This document shows positions 4,574 through 12,468 of a stretch of 20,000 nt of DNA, piece by piece. The stretch lies in the IMG/VR virus record IMGVR_UViG_3300028805_000115. One strand, given 5' to 3'. The position numbers were made by a program, and so were the translations under genes. The notes below the pieces were generated by a model. That model did no database searches. It saw nothing but the letters and a program-made list of their open reading frames with translations, and was not told the DNA's origin. How positions within the stretch are numbered: the first letter of the stretch is position 1; each line of letters begins with the position of its first letter. This stretch comes from an uncultured virus (IMG/VR IMGVR_UViG_3300028805_000115) (lineage: Duplodnaviria > Heunggongvirae > Uroviricota > Caudoviricetes).

Positions 4574-4771
4574 TTAAATTTTTTTCTTGAGACCTAAAAA
4601 GTAGTCTCTTGACATAGCTCCAATATCTTTGAAAGTCTTGATATTCCAACGATATTCAGTGATTATCTTGTTATCTACCTCTTCTCGTATTCGTTCTCTC
4701 GCCTTTAGTCCTGCTTTGTCCATATCTGTAGCAAGTATTAATTCTCTGCATGGAAGTTCTCTCAGCTGTTC
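4574..4771 (-). pseudogene. Displaced 3' fragment of a DNA primase gene (TOPRIM C-terminal part)
   Basis: EQLRELPCRELILATDMDKAGLKARERIREEVDNKIITE...KDIGAMSRDYFLGL aligns with the primase C-terminus AQIKKLPCRKVILATDKDDAGKKARIRLREELSNKIVTE...KDMNDMTREEFYAL; no RBS. Confidence 0.85.
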
Positions 4772-5573
4772 TACCCTTATGATAACCTTCTGGAACATCT
4801 TCTGTAGTTCTCAAACGTATATTATTCGTTCCATTTGTCACCCACATCCAAATACCTCGTTCTCCCTTATTATAAGGCTCTTTTCCCTTCATTGGGTTTT
4901 GCCAACCACTTGCATATCTTTCTCTTAACAGTTGTGATTTTAAGTTTCTTGTTTCTTCTGATTGCTTTGTACCTACTAATTTTTGCCTTATCTTTTCTTT
5001 TGTTTCTTCTGTATGACAACCTGTAAAACCAGAACTTCCTTTCTTAAACATTCCACCATTTCTAAAATCAGGATGTTCTCTATGAAATTTTTTCTTTGCT
5101 TCACTTCTTGTTTTATCTCGTTCTGGTGTATGTAAATATCCTTCAATAAAACCGCTGTCTAAATACTTTTGTAATTCAAATTGTTTCACATATTTTTCGA
5201 TTTCGCCATTATTTATAACAGTGCGTCCAGACATAGACACTTTCATTTTCTCCCGTCTATGTTCTTTTTCAGCATCAGTTAATCCAGAAAATGTATCTCC
5301 ACCGTCTCCGCCTTTAGAGATATTATATCCAACAAACATATTATCACTATGATGTACATGAATATAAATCTTCTCATATCTATTTATGTCTGAACGAGTT
5401 TCACACCACTTTAATAATTCTGTCTTAAAATTATCAATTCCGTATTTTTCAAATGCTCTACGAATTAACTTACCACTACCGTGATATTCTTTATCAAACA
5501 CTTGTGACTTATGCTGACCAATATAAATCTTTCCATTTACTAAATTAGTTGTTTTATAAATATATCCATACAT
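4671..5573 (-). CDS. GIY-YIG homing endonuclease with NUMOD-type DNA-binding repeats
   Basis: MYGYIYKTTNLVNGKIYIGQH, YHGSG, GYNISKGGDGG; HTEETKEKIR and QSEETR NUMOD3-like repeats; WVTNG...PEGYHKGR modules. The last ~30 codons run out of frame through the primase remnant. Confidence 0.93.
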   Translation of the reverse strand: MYGYIYKTTNLVNGKIYIGQHKSQVFDKEYHGSGKLIRRAFEKYGIDNFKTELLKWCETRSDINRYEKIYIHVHHSDNMFVGYNISKGGDGGDTFSGLTDAEKEHRREKMKVSMSGRTVINNGEIEKYVKQFELQKYLDSGFIEGYLHTPERDKTRSEAKKKFHREHPDFRNGGMFKKGSSGFTGCHTEETKEKIRQKLVGTKQSEETRNLKSQLLRERYASGWQNPMKGKEPYNKGERGIWMWVTNGTNNIRLRTTEDVPEGYHKGRTAERTSMQRINTCYRYGQSRTKGERTNTRRGR

Positions 5574-5574
5574 A

Positions 5575-6534
5575 CTACAAAACTTCTCCTAACGCATAAA
5601 ATTCTTCTCTTGTCATATCGTTCATATCTTTAGCATGGTCTGGGTATGTTCTATAGTCTAATTCAGTAACAATTTTATTGCTCAACTCCTCTCTTAATCG
5701 TATTCTTGCTTTTTTACCAGCATCATCTTTATCAGTTGCAAGTATAACTTTTCGACACGGAAGTTTCTTTATTTGTGCAATAGATAATTCATTACCCAAA
5801 CCATTTAATGCTACTGCATATTTATTATAGCACCAAATAGTTAAAGCGTCAATCATACTTTCACAAATATAAATTTCATCTGGAAATTTTTCTAACTGAT
5901 ATAGCTCAAATATGCCATAAAGCGGTTTTTCTACTCCTTCGGGATAGTGATATCTCTTTGTCTTAACGGCTCGTGTAGCAACAAAAAGGGTGTTGCCAGA
6001 AATATCACGGACAGGGAAAGTAATACAATCACTGCTTTTATCATAGCCAATATCAAAAGTCTCAATAATCTCATCGTCCAGACCACGCTCATACATATAA
6101 GGGTGAGTATAGCGATATTTGTCCAATACATCTTCAGACACATACTCCTTTCTTTTGTGCTTTCTGCTTCTTGACATATCAAGCGGTATATCATTTCTAC
6201 TTTCTGTCTCAAGATGTGAAAAGTTCTTGAGCAACCACTTGTTTCCAAACTTGCCTAATATGTCATCATCTTTACCAAAACAGAATGAAATCACTTCTGG
6301 CAAGCTGTGAATCTCGCCACATGCGAAACAATGAAACTTTCCATCGTCTTTTCTCAGTCCTGCGGAAGGCTTCTTCTCTTGCCCTCCGCTATGATATGGA
6401 CATTGAACCATGATGTGTGTCTGTAGATTGTTACGCTTTTGTAAAAGCTGTATTCCATTGGCTTGTAGCTGAATAGCCAGCTCATCAAGAATATCTGACA
6501 GCTCGACATTGTAATAGGTCTCGCCTATCTTCAT
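5575..6534 (-). CDS. dnaG: DNA primase (CHC2 zinc finger + TOPRIM)
   Basis: CPYH...CFAC zinc finger; ICESMIDAL and ATDKDDAG TOPRIM motifs; KDMND. Confidence 0.93.
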   Translation of the reverse strand: MKIGETYYNVELSDILDELAIQLQANGIQLLQKRNNLQTHIMVQCPYHSGGQEKKPSAGLRKDDGKFHCFACGEIHSLPEVISFCFGKDDDILGKFGNKWLLKNFSHLETESRNDIPLDMSRSRKHKRKEYVSEDVLDKYRYTHPYMYERGLDDEIIETFDIGYDKSSDCITFPVRDISGNTLFVATRAVKTKRYHYPEGVEKPLYGIFELYQLEKFPDEIYICESMIDALTIWCYNKYAVALNGLGNELSIAQIKKLPCRKVILATDKDDAGKKARIRLREELSNKIVTELDYRTYPDHAKDMNDMTREEFYALGEVL

Positions 6535-7835
6535 CAGAATACGTCCTCCTTAGCATCTGACTTTTTAGTATTGCGCTTTCTTTCTTCACGCGGTTTACTA
6601 TCTCGCGCTACAGCATCATCAACAGTAGGTAGATACGTGAATGTTCCTGTGTCGATATCCCAATTATATGCTACCTCTCCACCAACTGTTCCGTATCGAT
6701 TCTTCTTGACTCCTATCTTTAGCACATTATCCTTTGTCTGTCTGATTGACAGAACTTTTGTAGCATTCATGGCTATACCATCACTGTCTCTGATGCTCTC
6801 AAGCTCAGGTACTCCCTCTTTGTCAGCATCTATAACTCCATTTCTGTTCGCCTGAACTACTACCATGACAGGAATCTCAAGTTCTACACTCAGCGCGATT
6901 AAATCCTCACTTATGTTTGTAAGCATCGTGGTTTTTGAATCTCCACGCTTATATCGCTCATCTGAAAGATACGTAATACCATCAATCGCGATACAATCAA
7001 GCTTGTACTTCTTAACCCAATTCTTTAACTTGGTCACTGTTATCTGTCGCTGAAAATCTGCTGGCGTAGCCACTATGAATTTATTATCACGCTCTGCGAC
7101 TTCCTCGATATATGCTTTATAGTCTGCATCATCAACGCCATCTTTTGACCACATCAAGCCTGTATTTGAATAATTCTTATACAGCGTATCAAAACGATAA
7201 CCTACACTGCTTGCTGACATCTCTGGTGATACATACCCAACATTGTAACCAATCTCCCATATGTGTGTGCATATCTTCTCAAGCACAAAGCTCTTGCCCA
7301 TGTTTGTACGTGCTACGATGACGATAAATTCCTCTTTACGCTGTATGCAATGAATCAGACCATCAAGCTCCTCAAAACCACATGTAAAGAACCAATCGTT
7401 CTGATGTGTCTTTCTCTCTTGATACTGCTTATATCTGTTTACAGCATCTTTGATGATGTCAATTCCACCAACATCATATTCAGGCTGTAAATGTCGCATC
7501 TCGTTTATAAGATATTCAGCGGCCACGTTTGAATCTGTCTTTAAAAGCTCTGCGGCCTTTGTAATAACGGGAACTGACCTGAAGTAAAGATATTCTTCTC
7601 GAATCTTCTCTACCAGATATCTGTCGCTTTCAGTGACTTCTACAAGCTCTACATCTGAAAACTCGTTAAGGAATGTAGCTTTGTCAGGCACATTTCCATA
7701 CTTCTCGTAATGCTCTAATATATAATCAATTTCCTCTTTGTATTCAGGAAAATAGTCAGCTGTGATGTTATTGTCTTGCATGATGGCAAGACTTCCTGTA
7801 CTCAGCACTTTTGATATAATCTGCAAATCAACCAT
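6534..7835 (-). CDS. dnaB: DnaB-like replicative helicase
   Basis: Walker A ARTNMGKS, SPEM, AIDGITY, VVQANR, KNRYG. Confidence 0.93.
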   Translation of the reverse strand: MVDLQIISKVLSTGSLAIMQDNNITADYFPEYKEEIDYILEHYEKYGNVPDKATFLNEFSDVELVEVTESDRYLVEKIREEYLYFRSVPVITKAAELLKTDSNVAAEYLINEMRHLQPEYDVGGIDIIKDAVNRYKQYQERKTHQNDWFFTCGFEELDGLIHCIQRKEEFIVIVARTNMGKSFVLEKICTHIWEIGYNVGYVSPEMSASSVGYRFDTLYKNYSNTGLMWSKDGVDDADYKAYIEEVAERDNKFIVATPADFQRQITVTKLKNWVKKYKLDCIAIDGITYLSDERYKRGDSKTTMLTNISEDLIALSVELEIPVMVVVQANRNGVIDADKEGVPELESIRDSDGIAMNATKVLSIRQTKDNVLKIGVKKNRYGTVGGEVAYNWDIDTGTFTYLPTVDDAVARDSKPREERKRNTKKSDAKEDVF

Positions 7836-8494
7836 TATCTCATGTCTCCGCCTTTCAGTGTTATTATCTCACTTGCCCCATATATTCTGCTTGTTAATCT
7901 CTCGCCTAAAATCTTCTCAAGCTCGCTTTCAGTCATTATGTTTGAAGTAAATATATTTGACTTGCCTGCCAATATCCTGTTGTTTATTGCTGTGAAAAGC
8001 TGTGTATAATCGTACTGTGATATTCCTGTAATTGCTACATCATCCCACACAACAAGCGGAACATTCTCAAGATTATCCTTATACTCTTTTGATAATGGAC
8101 TGTTAAAGTCTTTCAGCTTTATCAAGTAATCTGAAACAGAGACAAACATTCCTTGTAATCGCTCATAGTTTCCAGCTGACCTTTTGTGAAAGTATGTATG
8201 AAGCATTCTTACAGCCCAACTTGTTTTACCGTTTCCAGCTCTTCCACAGATATACAGATTATTTCCGTCAGACACAAACTTTTCAATATCTGCTTTAATA
8301 GCTTTTAAACGCACGTAAGCGGGTCTATCTACGCGATTTACATCGTTGATATACATCTCTATAGGCTGACGCAATTTAACCGGCAATCCGCTGTTTTCCA
8401 TTTGCCAGCGCATCTCTAAAAATGTCCGACACATAAAACATCTGTCTGTACAAACATCTTTATACCAGCACTCAGAATTTCTCTGATTTTCCAT
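7835..8494 (-). CDS. DnaC/DnaI/IstB-like AAA+ helicase loader
   Basis: N-terminal Cys cluster; Walker A GRAGNGKT; Walker B VVWDD; IFTSN; RLTSRI; G-D-R end; lies between initiator and helicase. Confidence 0.9.
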   Translation of the reverse strand: MENQRNSECWYKDVCTDRCFMCRTFLEMRWQMENSGLPVKLRQPIEMYINDVNRVDRPAYVRLKAIKADIEKFVSDGNNLYICGRAGNGKTSWAVRMLHTYFHKRSAGNYERLQGMFVSVSDYLIKLKDFNSPLSKEYKDNLENVPLVVWDDVAITGISQYDYTQLFTAINNRILAGKSNIFTSNIMTESELEKILGERLTSRIYGASEIITLKGGDMR

Positions 8495-9251
8495 TTTTTA
8501 TTTCCTCTCTAAATTGTATCTTATCTACCTTCTTGCGCTCATCATCGTAAGTATCAAAATTTGATTTTGATTTACTCTTGCAATCATACTTGCCCTCAAG
8601 TATGCTGATAAACTTATCCTCACGTAGAATGAAATCAATATCAGCTTTCCAACCTCTATCATTCTTTCCTGTAAGAAAACTCGATTTCTGCGCTTTCGTA
8701 AACACTGCTTTGATATCTTCAAGTGAATATCTCTTTATCAGCTTCTTTATAGCTTTCTCTCTTTTCTCTGTAAGCTTTACGCATTTAGGTAAATCAGTGC
8801 ATATTTGGTGGTATAATTCTACGAAGGTATAAATTTCAGAATCCGTTTTTTCACTCTTAGCATTAATAGATTTATCTATTAATGCCTTTTTATTACTTGT
8901 TTTATTGCTTATATTATTAGCTCGTAAAATCTGCGATTCAGCATCGTAAATTTTATCATTCTGCTTAGTAAATTTTACTACTCTGCTTAGTACAGATAAA
9001 GTTCTATGTCTCCCATCAAAGTTCAAAACTCTGATGTATTCAAGCTCTGTTAGATGTCTTATAGCTTTAGATACTGCGCTTTCACTACAATTACAAAACT
9101 GCGCGAAATAATCATTTCCAGCTGTACAATGATTTTCATTATCCAAACTGTCTATCTCGGTATATATTACTTTTTCAAGCATTGACAGCTCATTATTAAG
9201 CCAAATCTCTTTTGGTATCCACACACCCTTAAAGTCTCGTTGTTCTTGCAT
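8472..9251 (-). CDS. Phage replication initiator / replisome organiser (N-terminal winged HTH)
   Basis: FKGVWIPKEIW...EIDSL...C-A-N-YFA...SESAVSKAIRHL wHTH; C-terminal FLTGKNDRGWKADIDFI...ILEGKY; RBS AAGGAG; upstream of the loader. Confidence 0.88.
   Translation of the reverse strand: MQEQRDFKGVWIPKEIWLNNELSMLEKVIYTEIDSLDNENHCTAGNDYFAQFCNCSESAVSKAIRHLTELEYIRVLNFDGRHRTLSVLSRVVKFTKQNDKIYDAESQILRANNISNKTSNKKALIDKSINAKSEKTDSEIYTFVELYHQICTDLPKCVKLTEKREKAIKKLIKRYSLEDIKAVFTKAQKSSFLTGKNDRGWKADIDFILREDKFISILEGKYDCKSKSKSNFDTYDDERKKVDKIQFREEIKNGKSEKF
8860..8992. repeat. Putative replication origin inside the initiator gene: ~22-bp iterons, AT-rich tract and palindrome
   Basis: GCATCGTAAATTTTATCATTCT (8941-8962), GCTTAGTAAATTTTACTACTCT (8963-8984), partial copies at 8920-8940 and 8985-8992; AT-rich 8886-8919; GCATTAATAGAT-TT-ATCTATTAATGC (8860-8885). 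Confidence 0.7.
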
Positions 9252-9267
9252 GATTTATAACTCCTTC

Positions 9268-9441
9268 TCAGAAAAAGTAAAAAGTACAAATTCTTCATCG
9301 CTCCCACACGATGTTGAATTTGTACTTTGTCGGGGTCAAGTACGCTTCTCTTGAATATGAGGTCTCATATACAGCGACAACTGTGGGAGAAGCCGTCACT
9401 TGACCTATTTGTTTAGCATATAACAGTTCAATCACTGTCAT
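9268..9441 (-). ncRNA. Structured cis-regulatory leader RNA (multibranch stem plus terminator-like hairpin with long-range pairings) upstream of the initiator
   Basis: GGUCAAGU/ACUUGACC, GCUUCUC/GAGAAGC, ACAG/CUGU and AUAUGA/UCAUAU stems; AAAGUACAAAUUC/GAAUUUGUACUUU hairpin plus U-tract; CUCCCACA/UGUGGGAG and UUGUCG/CGACAA complementarities. Confidence 0.75.
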
Positions 9442-9447
9442 AATAGT

Positions 9448-9476
9448 AGTATAACATGTTTATTTCAGATTGTCAA
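9448..9476 (-). promoter_or_regulatory. Sigma-A/70 promoter P3 for the replication operon
   Basis: TTGACA (9476-9471), 17 bp, TATACT (9453-9448), with extended -10 TG. Confidence 0.85.
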
Positions 9477-9479
9477 CAA

Positions 9480-9752
9480 CTATTTAAAAGTTCTTGAAAT
9501 ATCTTCAATCTGATTATCACACTCAGCATTTACAGTATCCCATAAAAGCTGTCTTTCTTTCTCGATATCTACTCCTGTAACGTCAGGAATCGCTCTTTCC
9601 TCATGATATTCTACTGTAAAGTAGTTATCCTTTATCTTTACGCTTGCACGACTCGTGGCCGCGATTACCGTGATTTTGGCAATGCTTTCGTAAGCTTTCT
9701 CTTTTGCTTTCGTAGTCTTTGTTGTTACTTTCTTTGTTGTTTTAGTCGGCAT
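9480..9752 (-). CDS. Hypothetical protein
   Basis: 90-aa ORF, Lys/Thr-rich N-terminus, tightly packed in the operon. Confidence 0.75.
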   Translation of the reverse strand: MPTKTTKKVTTKTTKAKEKAYESIAKITVIAATSRASVKIKDNYFTVEYHEERAIPDVTGVDIEKERQLLWDTVNAECDNQIEDISRTFK

Positions 9753-9756
9753 GATA

Positions 9757-10161
9757 TCACCCCTTTTTCTTTGTGATTTTAAGACTTACTGTAACAGATT
9801 TATCTTTACAGCTCGCCATCTTCTCTACAAAGTCAGGACCCATCAGATTGTGATAGATAGCGTTCTCAAGCGCGTTTTCATCAACCTGCTCTACAGTCTT
9901 AATTAATCCTAACTCTTTAAGCTGTTTCTTGCTAAAAGTGCTGTGAAGCAAATATAACAGCTTTTCCTCATCCATGCTCTCTCGAACAGATTCTATGTAG
10001 TTAGCTGTATAACCGTCAGTTTCGTACTTTTTAAGACCTGCACTTGCCATGATATCTTTGATTTCTGCGTTTTCGGAGTCACATACTTTCTTTAATTCGC
10101 CGGCTTCAGCTTTGTGCATTGCAAGCTGTGGTATAAGTTCATCCAACTTCTGTGTACTCAT
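9757..10161 (-). CDS. Hypothetical protein (helical; loosely Gam/gp157-like)
   Basis: 134-aa ORF, RBS AAGGAGG; N-terminal coiled coil; family assignment tentative. Confidence 0.7.
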   Translation of the reverse strand: MSTQKLDELIPQLAMHKAEAGELKKVCDSENAEIKDIMASAGLKKYETDGYTANYIESVRESMDEEKLLYLLHSTFSKKQLKELGLIKTVEQVDENALENAIYHNLMGPDFVEKMASCKDKSVTVSLKITKKKG

Positions 10162-10171
10162 GATATCCTCC

Positions 10172-10429
10172 TTATAATGGTAAAGTTAAATCGATGTTCT
10201 CAATCTCAGCACGAACTTCCAGTATGTGCAAATATTTACCCATAGCTCTTGCTTGCTTCTGTAACAGCTCAAGACTGCATACAGGCTCGAATCCAAGTGT
10301 CCCTGCTTCCATCTTTATGATGGTCGAATGTAATTTGTTATACCTGATTTTTGTCTGATGATATTCTGCACGAAATCTTTCTTTGTAGTTGTCGGATGTC
10401 ATCGCATCCACTGTGTTTGCTAATTCCAT
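10172..10429 (-). CDS. Conserved phage helical-hairpin protein (crAss001_48-like)
   Basis: YKERFRAEYHQTKIRYNKL...C-LELLQKQARAMGKYLHILEVRAEIENIDL pattern recalled from that family; RBS AAGGAG. Confidence 0.65.
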   Translation of the reverse strand: MELANTVDAMTSDNYKERFRAEYHQTKIRYNKLHSTIIKMEAGTLGFEPVCSLELLQKQARAMGKYLHILEVRAEIENIDLTLPL

Positions 10430-10432
10430 TTT

Positions 10433-10711
10433 TTACTCTCCTTTTTTAACATACTTTTGTGTTACTGCACCCATAGCTCCGTTACGACCGATGGGTATCT
10501 TCTCTTTAAATTCTTTGACTTTCCAGATGTCACTGAATTTCCAGCTTCTTGTACCTCTTGCATGGTCCTGCTCAAAGTCAGGAAGAAGCTTTGACAGCTC
10601 ATGGTCAGGCTCTGCCTGTTTGAATGCATACCAGTTATTGATTGTCTTAACAGATACACCAACTGACAGCGCAAGCTCCTCTACTTTGATGCGTCTTTCT
10701 TTAGTTGCCAT
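10433..10711 (-). CDS. HTH (MerR/Xis-like) DNA-binding protein
   Basis: IKVEELALSVGVSVKTINNWY helix-turn-helix plus R-W wing; ATG at 10711 after AAGGAGG. Confidence 0.75.
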   Translation of the reverse strand: MATKERRIKVEELALSVGVSVKTINNWYAFKQAEPDHELSKLLPDFEQDHARGTRSWKFSDIWKVKEFKEKIPIGRNGAMGAVTQKYVKKGE

Positions 10712-10748
10712 ATTGATTCCTCCTTTCTTAAACATTTACTTTAAACAT

Positions 10749-10777
10749 AACATAACACATTTAAAATGCGCTGTCAA
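10749..10777 (-). promoter_or_regulatory. Sigma-A/70 promoter P4
   Basis: TTGACA (10777-10772), 17 bp, TATGTT with extended -10 TG. Confidence 0.7.
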
Positions 10778-10794
10778 TCTCTTTTTTAACTGTC

Positions 10795-12468
10795 TCACGA
10801 CAGGAGGAAGTCAATGACTTCCTCTTTGTTGACAGTAAGCTTACCATCTACAAGCATATCTGCCATCGCGCCTTTCTTGTAAACAAGCTGATGTATTCTC
10901 TCATCGATGGTGTTCTTTGCAAGCAATGTATAGATTGTTACGTTCTCTTTTGTACCAACTCTGTGGCATCTATCTTCTGCTTGCTCTTTGTTAGCTCTGT
11001 TCCAAGGCTCATCCATGAAGATTTCTACTGTGCCAGCTGTAAGTGTTAAGCCTGTTCCCATCGCTCCTGTCGTTCCGATGATGACTTTACACTTGGGATT
11101 GTTCTGGAACTCATTCTTTGCTGTCTCTCGCGCTTCAGCATTAAGCTCTCCTGTGATTGATACACAGTAATATTTCTTTTCAAGTCTCTCACGTATCGGT
11201 GTTGTCATCTGTGTCCAGTTGCTGAAGATGACAACTTTCTTACCGTTTGCTACAGCTTCTTCAACAAGCTCTTCCATTCTGTCAAGCTTTGCGCTTTCTC
11301 TGATACTGCTTGAAAGAATGCCGGTGTAACCAGTCGCCTGTCTCATTCTGATTAACTCAGCAAGTGGATTACTTGCTTTCTTTATCTGGTCGATGTTTGC
11401 TTGTATATCTGCTGTGACTTCTTTGTAAATCTGTAACTGCTTGGGTGTAAGCTCGACAAACTCATCAATATAAAGCTTTTCAGGAAGGTCAAGCACATCA
11501 CTCTTTAAACGTCTCAGCATGATTTCATTAAGTCTCTCGCTAAGCTCATCAAGATTCTTGTAACCGATGATTTCATATCCGCCGTATCCACCATATTCAC
11601 AATAGTGCTTTTTGAAGCTGTAGAATGCATGACTCTCATATCCTAACCACTTCAGTATGATGAACAAGTCAATGGGCTGATTCATAACGGGTGTACCTGT
11701 CATCGCGATTCTTACCTTAGGCTCAAGCTTTAACAGTGCTTTGCCCTGCTGACTTGTAGGGTCTTTGCATTTATGTACTTCATCAACAGCGATGATACCA
11801 ATCTTGCCTGATTTGCAAAGCTCGCTTATCTTAGTCTGTATTGACTCATCGCGGATGCTCTCTATGTTTGTGATAATGAAATAGCTGTCTATGTTATCGA
11901 TGTTCTCTAAATCTGCTAACTTCTCTTTGTTACCCTTGATTTTACCATTTCTGTTACCAAGTATGTATCCTGTCTCGTTGCTGTGAATGCTTATCTCATT
12001 CTGCCAGTTGTACTTCAGACCGTTGACACAACAGATAATCAAGCACTTTTTGATTTTGTACTGAAGCTTTTTAGCTACTGCGATGTCAATTACTTGCTTT
12101 GTCTTACCAAGTCCCTGCTCATCAGCAAGCAACCATCTGTCGTGATTCAAGCCATAATTGAAACCATCTATCTGATGCTCAAAGGGTTTTGTTTTGAACT
12201 GAAATCCGTCGGGCATCTTAACTTCCTGCTTTGTCAGTGATACATACTCATTAGCGTTAATCTCGATTTCAAAGTCTGAAGCTTTCTCAATGAACTCAGC
12301 AAGCTTATTGAATGGAAGCTCCCACTCTTTGTTCTTAGCGTCCCAATGCTTCATCGGAAAGCTTCTCACTGCATCAACAAGTGACTGATTGTAAGGAAAC
12401 GAAATAAACAAGCTGTTATCATCTATGCCGACATTTTCTCTCTTGCGAATATCGATTTTTACTGTCAT
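10795..12468 (-). CDS. SNF2-family helicase/ATPase with N-terminal HARP-like domain
   Basis: DEQGLGKT, DEVH, MTGTP, MLRRLK, GTGLTLT, QAEDRCHRVG; N-terminal ISFPYN...WDAKNKEWELP; ATG at 12468 after AAGGAG. Confidence 0.92.
   Translation of the reverse strand: MTVKIDIRKRENVGIDDNSLFISFPYNQSLVDAVRSFPMKHWDAKNKEWELPFNKLAEFIEKASDFEIEINANEYVSLTKQEVKMPDGFQFKTKPFEHQIDGFNYGLNHDRWLLADEQGLGKTKQVIDIAVAKKLQYKIKKCLIICCVNGLKYNWQNEISIHSNETGYILGNRNGKIKGNKEKLADLENIDNIDSYFIITNIESIRDESIQTKISELCKSGKIGIIAVDEVHKCKDPTSQQGKALLKLEPKVRIAMTGTPVMNQPIDLFIILKWLGYESHAFYSFKKHYCEYGGYGGYEIIGYKNLDELSERLNEIMLRRLKSDVLDLPEKLYIDEFVELTPKQLQIYKEVTADIQANIDQIKKASNPLAELIRMRQATGYTGILSSSIRESAKLDRMEELVEEAVANGKKVVIFSNWTQMTTPIRERLEKKYYCVSITGELNAEARETAKNEFQNNPKCKVIIGTTGAMGTGLTLTAGTVEIFMDEPWNRANKEQAEDRCHRVGTKENVTIYTLLAKNTIDERIHQLVYKKGAMADMLVDGKLTVNKEEVIDFLLS

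Follow-up and report, generated by a model that had tools for sequence, protein, structure and literature searches.

The 20-kb stretch of DNA analyzed here (20,000 nucleotides [nt], hereafter the window) belongs to the uncultured virus IMGVR_UViG_3300028805_000115 and carries, on its minus strand, a structured leader RNA that precedes the genes for DNA replication. The leader apparently represents an undescribed family of leader RNAs in uncultured Clostridia phages, in which the loop of an upstream hairpin is complementary to the loop of a terminator-like hairpin on the same RNA. Our interpretation, which we hold to be somewhat better than an even bet, is that it is a cis-acting, kissing-loop-gated transcription attenuator.

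All genes around the leader lie on the minus strand. Directly downstream is a replication initiator/replisome organizer gene (8472-9251; ATG at 9251-9249), recognized by the Pfam domain HTH_36, replication-initiation families in PHROGs and annotated relatives. It is followed by genes for an IstB-like loader (7835-8494), a DnaB helicase (6534-7835) and a primase (5575-6534), all assigned through Pfam and PHROGs. A GIY-YIG endonuclease gene of the SegE-like homing type (4671-5573) separates the primase from the next genes, and an SSB-like protein and a family-A DNA polymerase are encoded further downstream (Pfam, PHROGs). Upstream of the leader we find an SNF2 helicase gene, several small genes and a gene of 90 amino acids (aa) with no assigned function (9480-9752), which adjoins the promoter of the leader and ends 3 nt before it. 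This 90-aa gene is conserved beyond the window's clade (viral metagenome contigs with a related initiator, comprising six distinct leader sequences of 72 to 97% identity), and in most relatives it stands directly upstream of the leader promoter. Its product has no Pfam or PHROG family, no PDB match at an E value of ≤0.001 and no homologue in cultured phages; the AlphaFold model (pLDDT 78.6) displays a lysine-rich, low-confidence N terminus, a long beta-hairpin and a 27-residue helix.

The promoter itself (9448-9476) is near consensus and is kept in relatives, with 11 of 12 matches in the -35 box TTGACA (9476-9471) and -10 box TATACT (9453-9448) and a TG at 9456-9455 within the 17-nt spacer. 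Transcription is predicted to start near 9441. At the other end of the leader, the ribosome-binding site (RBS) of the initiator gene, GAAGGAG, occupies 9261-9267.

Architecture of the leader

The 194 nt from 9445 to 9252 fold with a minimum free energy (MFE) of -65.8 kcal/mol, compared with -38.3 ± 3.8 kcal/mol in 200 shuffles, none of which was as good (z = -7.26). The MFE fold consists of a 5' hairpin, a multibranch domain and a long hairpin. A preliminary description, made from the letters of this DNA alone, had proposed a promoter and a ~190-nt leader with a 5' hairpin, a multibranch domain and a terminator-like hairpin on the minus strand; all of its coordinates for these parts were correct, and the U-tract, RBS and ATG lie where it had placed them.

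The 5' hairpin (9419-9442) is specific to the window's lineage, being part of a 28-nt stretch that is missing from half of the clade (L006/L007, L008 and L041/L043). A leader peptide was considered for the 48-aa open reading frame (ORF) at 9295-9441 and rejected, since its start codon falls within this insertion, absent from relatives; the ORF product has no Pfam match. Four other leaders (L118, L082, L132 and L095) carry a tiny 5' hairpin, GUC-GNRA-GAC or GUC-AAAA-GAC, between the -10 box and the ACAAA block, which may be a 5'-end stabilizer or a tetraloop for a tertiary contact.

The domain that follows starts with single-stranded ACAAAUAG (9405-9412), for which the family consensus is AAA.AG, conserved to at least 93% (alignment A7, 45 leaders). 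In helix P1, whose outer part covaries in the family, GGUCAAGU (9398-9405) pairs with ACUUGACC (9334-9341). Hairpin P2 (9373-9400), which also covaries, forms in what we call the open state through arms 9400-9391 and 9382-9373, with 10 pairs of which three are G-U; UUGUCG falls within its 3' arm. The P2 loop carries the first kissing strand, CUCCCACA (9382-9389), and in the window a local hairpin places UCUCCCAC in the loop. Further along, the hairpin AUAUGA-GACC-UCAUAU (9355-9370), invariant in the window's clade, contains the family-wide conserved ACCUCAUA (9363-9356). Among the 45 leaders the unpaired nucleotides conserved to at least 91% are AAA.AG before P1 and C.U.AUA of ACCUCAUA. The segment CGACAA (9327-9332), which spans the linker and the foot of the next hairpin, is not conserved. 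A tRNA-like reading of the 72-nt domain was discarded because the order of helices does not fit, as judged by eye.

The last part is the terminator-like hairpin (T; 9281-9328), with a basal stem (9328-9316 with 9293-9281), an AA/AA internal loop and an apical stem (9313-9309 with 9300-9296). Its loop is the second kissing strand, UGUGGGAG (9301-9308), complementary to 9389-9382 at 8 of 8 nt, and its 3' foot runs into the U-tract UUUUUACUUUUU (9272-9283). At 48 nt and -22.1 kcal/mol, T has the hairpin and U-tract of an intrinsic terminator and ends ~20 nt before the initiator RBS; a simple consensus terminator scan lists only its apical part, and on the other strand.

Covariation of the loop-loop pairing

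CUCCCACA and UGUGGGAG are the sole two sites of this 8-mer or its complement in the window, where 0.30 would be expected. Within the window's clade we compared the kissing strands and the helix of the closed fold (described below) row by row; MAFFT did not keep these strands in register, so no columns were counted. P1, the hairpin AUAUGAGACCUCAUAU and the 3' arm of T with its U-tract are invariant, and A-to-G changes in the 5' arm of T preserve G-U pairs on the transcribed strand only. Against these nearly invariant flanks we observe three different kissing pairs, namely CUCCCACA/UGUGGGAG in the window, L002 and L003, CCCCGACAU/AUGUCGGGG in L004 and L008, and CUCCCCAG/CUGGGGAG in L006/L007 and L041/L043.

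The same comparison bears on a second pairing that had been proposed, of UUGUCG (9380-9375) with CGACAA (9332-9327). Together with the loop pairing it would let one 15-nt strand bind both the foot and the loop of T and thereby loop out the 5' arm of T. Both complementarities are indeed present in the window, and L002/L003, which read CGGCAA, keep the second one through a G-U pair. The relatives contradict it: CGACAA is deleted in L004, L008, L006/L007 and L041/L043, that is, in three of the five clade sequence types that differ from the window. In addition, UUGUCG is the 3' arm of P2, and across the family the complement ends at the loop borders in 59 of 73 leaders. Only the loop-loop half of the bipartite scheme is conserved, with the arms of T having no conserved alternative partner, and we regard this scheme as scarcely credible.

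For a wider view we turned to 87 loci lying beside a relative of the 90-aa gene, which contain 80 distinct leaders. From the 330 nt after this gene we took the most stable simple hairpin with a T-rich tail (at least 4 T of 9) and an RBS-like word, and we then determined the longest uninterrupted complement that the T loop (±3 nt) has in the 140 nt upstream, with 200 shuffles per leader. A perfect complement of at least 6 nt is present in 73 of the 80 leaders (43 of 7 nt, 18 of 6 nt, 11 of 8 nt and 1 of 10 nt), and in 58 of the 80 the complement has a P value of ≤0.05 against the shuffles. In nearly all of the 73 leaders it is found 37 to 61 nt before the foot of T. It corresponds to the whole T loop (±1 nt) in the 59 leaders mentioned above, and in 64 of 73 leaders a local stem of at least 4 bp presents the 5' kissing strand as its loop, versus 325 of 1,146 control positions. 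We count 49 different kissing sequences among the 73 leaders. The seven with less than 6 nt of complement are L050 (truncated contig), L056 (apparent tRNA genes replace the leader), L079 (mis-picked hairpin, the leader being later matched by a covariance model), L071, L064, L104 and L116 (5 nt each in the last two), and one further distinct leader, L107, has no hairpin conforming to the survey rule. In L056 a different structured stretch followed by sequence resembling tRNA genes (~1734-2130) stands in place of the kissing leader.

No other long-range pairing behaves in this way. Among the 73 leaders a complement with a P value of ≤0.05 was found in 4 for the 5' arm of T against the upstream region (mean longest 5.22 nt versus 5.09 in shuffles), in 5 for the 3' arm and tail of T against the same region, and in 1 for the 5' domain against the 40 nt after T. 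A classical antiterminator was rejected on these grounds, neither arm of T having a conserved upstream complement, as was sequestration of the RBS by the 5' domain, for which complementarity is not in excess. Because the T arms and the region after T give chance values, the loop contact is the only conserved long-range pairing.

Columns were counted in a MAFFT alignment (A5) of 13 leaders from one sub-lineage, with P1, P2, T and the kissing loop written as a pseudoknot. Standard pairs fill 96.3% of its 430 cells, compared with 26 to 40% when the partners are slid, none of 500 shuffles reaches any of the observed measures, and 27 of the 34 pairs have changed on both sides. For the kissing helix these values are 98.9% of cells and 6 of 7 pairs. 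Since its strands covary in relatives, the kissing-loop pairing is far beyond chance, and at the level of aligned sequences the helices P1, P2, T and the kissing loop are shown to exist by covariation. When both long-range pairings of the preliminary description are checked for covariation in homologues, the loop-loop pairing thus has it and UUGUCG/CGACAA does not. A generic scan of the window for a second kissing-terminator element returned noise (100 overlapping pairs on the minus strand and 50 on the plus strand, with 31 to 62 per strand in shuffles), from which only the known element stood out.

Two fully complementary hairpin loops of 6 to 8 nt are a hallmark of antisense-RNA kissing pairs, as in ColE1, R1 and pT181. 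The full complementarity of the loops here is in line with a trans-acting dose sensor, in which the terminated leader of ~170 nt would serve as a small RNA whose P2 or T loop kisses the nascent leaders of sibling genomes. Read-through would then fall (or rise) with phage genome copy number, similar to plasmid antisense control or P4 CI immunity, except that the RNA would come from the sense strand. With a near-consensus promoter, the leader is expected to be abundant, and long unbroken T stems without a linker, found in some relatives, would make a cis contact look strained. Kissing sequences also differ between close relatives with similar flanks, as seen in the three pairs of the window's clade and in L122 and L133, whose flanks are 91% identical. 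However, among 44 leader pairs with 75 to 85% flank identity, 6 have a kissing sequence in common where ~9 are expected (0.8^7 = 0.21), so that the loops change at about the rate expected from divergence and no diversifying selection is seen. Moreover, a partner on the same molecule is always closer than one in trans, the window offers no further target for the kissing 8-mer, and each of five related contigs contains one copy of the element. Dose sensing in trans therefore appears unlikely to us.

Distribution and gene association

An alignment of the 90-aa gene (A3) brought 80 viral loci and 9 genome loci, the latter in bins titled Lachnospiraceae, Clostridia, Clostridium and Ructibacterium, plus one Bacteroidales bin and one unrelated weak match. 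The leader design is kept in dozens of related gut and rumen phages, and the titles of the Clostridia metagenome-assembled genomes point to Clostridia (Bacillota) of rumen and gut samples as the likely host group.

A covariance model (R1) was built from A5, whose 13 seed leaders belong to another sub-lineage than that of the window. It matches the window at 9270-9412 on the minus strand with 36.5 bits (E = 5e-7) over model positions 1 to 124 of 124, and it finds exactly one copy in each of the five related phage contigs, four of which are at least 90% complete. Overall, R1 recovers 45 leaders in 81 sources, together with two spurious reverse-strand matches on terminator hairpins; in the alignment fitted to R1, 95.4% of cells are paired and 25 of 26 pairs have a compensatory change. 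R1 misses at least 28 further leaders that keep this plan of P1, kissing hairpin and terminator, their 5' domains being too different. Among the matches listed in an additional scan of metagenomes there were few new leaders.

As a search independent of the 90-aa gene, we scanned for the pattern AGGTTAGC..ACCTCATA and filtered the results with R1. The pattern occurs mostly by chance, as 8 of the 80 fetched loci are true members, of which 5 are new. All five new loci contain the kissing pair and a gene after T whose start resembles, by eye, a replication initiator/replisome organizer, and the window's initiator did not match this gene in tblastn. The 90-aa gene is upstream of the leader in three of the five and missing in the other two.

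In the loci checked, the sequences always place the element upstream of a replication-initiator-like gene. A gene starts 6 to 78 nt after T in 68 of the 73 leaders. Among 30 sampled downstream products 15 have HTH_36, 14 have no Pfam match and one is a T5orf172 endonuclease inserted before the initiator; in this locus (L068, identical to L008) the T5orf172/MUG113 (GIY-YIG-like) endonuclease gene occupies 1967-2473, between the terminator of the leader and the initiator gene. At least six N-terminal initiator types follow the leader family. L002 and L003 have leaders 96 to 97% identical to that of the window, and their initiators match only from residue 111 on, which indicates that the leader stays in place while the N-terminal DNA-binding module of the initiator is exchanged.

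These features bring to mind a true riboswitch or a protein-controlled leader, in which ACAAAUAG, ACCUCAUA and the junction would bind a metabolite or a phage or host protein (e.g., the product of the neighboring 90-aa gene). Binding would fix the open or the closed fold, and the kissing loop would act as the expression platform, as in cobalamin riboswitches. The leader has the few invariant unpaired nucleotides amid covarying stems that are typical of a riboswitch core, as well as two folds of nearly equal predicted energy and a constant gene association, and the 90-aa gene is adjacent in three of five loci found without its help. Yet the at least 28 leaders of the same plan whose 5' domains escape R1 would be unusual for a single ligand pocket, no ligand can be named, and the 90-aa protein has no recognizable RNA-binding fold besides being missing from two of the five loci. 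A ligand- or protein-controlled leader of this kind strikes us as rather doubtful.

The leader has no DNA match in cultured phages, and the 7 kb around it gave only short matches to them under the homing-endonuclease, helicase and primase genes. In four cultured phages with related initiators (Lysinibacillus vB_LspM-01, Roseburia Shimadzu, Ruminococcus phiRM10 and Clostridium HM T) the gap before the gene is at most ~110 nt, which leaves no room for the leader. Among four near-complete relatives, a tyrosine integrase is absent from three and a serine recombinase from all four, which makes lysogenic immunity unlikely. The one with a tyrosine recombinase gene (C1:17915-18451) is the 81.9-kb relative G002, which is ~20 kb longer than the others. 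Judging from gene content, the phages carrying the leader are probably virulent.

Predicted alternative folds, putative termination and related systems

In the MFE fold of the window most of the kissing strand is hidden. GCUUCUC (9393-9387), 3 nt of which belong to the kissing strand, is paired to GAGAAGC (9350-9344), as is ACAGU to GCUGU. We refer to this fold as closed, in contrast to the open alternative with P2. When the 5' domain is folded alone, its MFE structure pairs at least part of the kissing strand in 71 of the 73 leaders, with a median cost of 6.9 kcal/mol for making that strand accessible. Its partner in these structures is the conserved ACCUCAUA region with its 3' neighbor, often as an inward extension of P1. 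With a nearest-neighbor estimate for the kissing duplex of -10.0 kcal/mol (median), the open fold with the kissing loop differs from the closed fold by a median of -2.6 kcal/mol, and 39 of 73 leaders fall within ±3 kcal/mol, a crude estimate that ignores loop geometry. By these calculations the 5' domain looks bistable, with near-equal energies. Read by eye, the strands of the closed helix change together in the clade (CAUCUUCC/GGAAGAUG in L004 and UUCUCC/GGAGAA in L006/L007), and RNAalifold proposes an AGGU/ACCU pairing between two invariant blocks, neither side of which varies. The locus bears out the preliminary description in holding a conserved, structured leader with a loop-loop pseudoknot and alternative folds, before the initiator, loader, helicase and primase genes of a Bacillota phage.

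On the side of termination, T in the family has a median of 18 bp (range 13 to 27) and -22 kcal/mol, and its stem covaries. Its 3' foot has at least 7 U in 11 nt in 53 of 73 leaders, a figure to be read against the survey rule of at least 4 T of 9 and a background of 32% T. From these features we infer that T stops RNA polymerase. A single 236-nt metatranscriptome contig (depth 2.6) covers 9276-9511 and stops inside the U-tract, which is a weak hint, as contigs cannot define ends. That 8204-9275 is not covered by any contig counts as no finding. Because only 6 to 78 nt separate T from the start codon, transcription into the replication genes must pass T, and T must be either leaky or regulated.

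We propose the following scheme for the attenuator. From a host-type promoter the phage would produce a two-part RNA, made of T and a 5' domain in which P1 encloses P2 together with the invariant unpaired ACAAAUAG and ACCUCAUA. P2 would form first, and the later strand around ACCUCAUA and the 3' strand of P1 could displace it. In the closed fold the ACCUCAUA strand and its 3' neighbor would engage the 5' arm of P2 as well as some of the kissing strand, hiding the latter. If P2 is still open when the loop of T emerges, the two loops would kiss co-transcriptionally and in cis. The contact would alter the efficiency of T and set the amount of mRNA for the initiator, loader, helicase and primase, such that the kissing loop modulates termination and the choice between closed and open forms the switch. 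Of the RNA switch that had been postulated to set replication gene expression, the structure, the loop contact and the context are borne out, and it is the control of read-through that we infer.

As to the direction of this effect, we lean slightly toward antitermination, in which the kissing loop would keep the long basal stem from zipping up readily. Most leaders have a linker of 0 to 5 nt between P1 and the 5' arm of T (a few have up to 14 nt), and because of this short linker a pre-formed kiss closes a ring, through which the 3' arm of T would have to wind by more than one helical turn, leading to slower zipping and read-through. The opposite is also possible, with the kiss nucleating or stabilizing the terminator. 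Possible inputs are a factor that recognizes the invariant nucleotides, the speed of transcription and RNA dose.

Several points weigh against this scheme. With no classical antiterminator, the route from loop contact to a change in termination is conjecture, and T is strong alone (-22 kcal/mol) and may terminate whatever the kissing loop does; in some relatives its U-tract is poor. Covariation cannot tell pairing in cis from pairing in trans, and a loop-loop contact in cis looks geometrically hard in L111, L119 and L127, which have an unbroken T stem of 21 to 22 bp joined to P1 by 0 to 1 nt. The length of the 5' arm of T has no correlation with the distance from P2 to T (r = 0.00), which is uninformative on geometry. 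The closed state rests on thermodynamic prediction and limited by-eye covariation in the window's clade, its AGGU/ACCU part being invariant and beyond covariation testing. Finally, the sample is one phage group with most loci collected via the 90-aa gene, and the transcript evidence comes from low-depth contigs, assembled from three metatranscriptome runs that belong to two studies.

The stability of T alone and the lack of an antiterminator also agree with a purely architectural role, in which the kissing loop compacts or stabilizes the leader (for nuclease protection or a fixed partial termination) or joins leaders hand in hand into oligomers, with no switching. There is precedent in phi29 pRNA, in which complementary loops on one RNA give oligomers. 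Against such a role, 71 of 73 leaders hide the kissing strand in the predicted ground state of their 5' domain, and in the window's clade the concealing helix co-changes with that strand, a pattern that is difficult to account for unless there is a switch. A location immediately ahead of essential genes likewise speaks for control, and there is no Rfam match to pRNA; we consider a non-regulatory role very unlikely.

Consistent with the preliminary description, which could assign no named family, Rfam 15 has no matches in the window, with only chance snoRNA-type matches in 9100-9600 (E values of 0.1 to 6), none in 20 related loci and none at an E value of ≤1 in 8 related loci. In the literature searched we found no terminator described in which the loop itself pairs, as a conserved partner, with the loop of a hairpin farther upstream in the same RNA. 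A 2023 catalogue of 8,495 unnamed candidate phage RNAs from IMG/VR may hold part of the element; the table of downstream domains in that article has no HTH_36 entry (PMC10690425).

By analogy, the closest functional counterpart would be pT181-type attenuation. The plasmid rep genes of pT181, pIP501 and pAMbeta1 are controlled by transcription attenuation driven by an antisense RNA. Shared features are a leader before a replication-initiator gene in Bacillota, kissing hairpin loops, an intrinsic terminator just before the rep RBS and, as proposed here, an output in the form of initiator mRNA amount. In contrast, the complementary loop here is on the terminator of the same RNA and not on a countertranscript, and no upstream strand is conserved as a preemptor for the 5' arm of T (the 4 of 73 leaders reported above). 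A consensus scan of 8000-11000 detected no promoter-like site for a countertranscript on the plus strand of 9262-9476.

In cobalamin riboswitches the aptamer loop L5 kisses loop L13 of the expression platform, which is likewise a loop-loop contact in cis with an expression-platform hairpin instead of strand exchange with a terminator arm. Here, however, there is no Rfam cobalamin match, the loops vary freely, no ligand is named and the 5' domain is only ~70 nt. The leader pseudoknot of IncB and IncI-alpha repZ pairs a hairpin loop with a linear stretch next to the RBS and activates translation. It resembles our leader in the cis pairing of a hairpin loop with a distant leader stretch before a replication-initiator gene and differs in that the hairpin of our leader contacts a terminator loop, with no partner for the RBS region. 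The output of P4 CI is premature termination, and P4 CI and the C4 RNA of P1 and P7 are also structured leader RNAs of a phage operon (replication or antirepressor genes) that are complementary to downstream sites of the transcript. The comparison with them made in the preliminary description holds as an analogy only: we find no Rfam C4 match, the target is a hairpin loop rather than linear sites, only one site is conserved, and the three near-complete relatives mentioned above are without an integrase. Finally, phi29 pRNA and the RNA I-RNA II pair of ColE1 have short, fully complementary loops that covary between relatives, and a three-way-junction RNA, but their contacts are intermolecular, and position, gene context and the absence of an Rfam pRNA match set our leader apart.

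Structured leaders that gate transcription and kissing hairpins in plasmid replication control are known already. We regard the leader described here as probably a new type of valve that turns phage replication on or off. Should read-through be set by the loop contact, the leader would constitute a new expression-platform logic, made of a loop contact and a bistable presenter with no strand exchange with a terminator arm, and would show how probably virulent Clostridia phages meter or time their replication proteins. A broader and improbable alternative is a self-contained copy-number or timing controller of a new type, a sense-strand RNA with both kissing partners whose terminated copies from replicating genomes would titrate the loops of nascent transcripts in trans through a private kissing code of each lineage, or a riboswitch with a kissing loop-terminator platform. 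Under the former, the private code would keep each lineage from interfering with co-infecting relatives, and under the latter a still unnamed cellular signal would time phage DNA replication. The 49 natural orthogonal kissing pairs on a common scaffold would also be ready-made parts for RNA circuit design.

Three minor observations were made elsewhere in the window. About 200 bp under the endonuclease gene at 4671-5573 have ~72% DNA identity with homing-endonuclease genes of Staphylococcus phages. Another strong promoter-like site (TTGACA at 10777) has, in its -35 region (10776-10764), an 8-nt complement to the loop at 10673-10664 on the minus strand, a short hairpin loop ~100 nt downstream inside the ORF 10433-10735, which may be due to chance. 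In addition, 10172-10429 on the minus strand encodes a small crAss001_48-related protein (PF21825, E = 1e-17), and relatives of this phage are binned with Clostridia.

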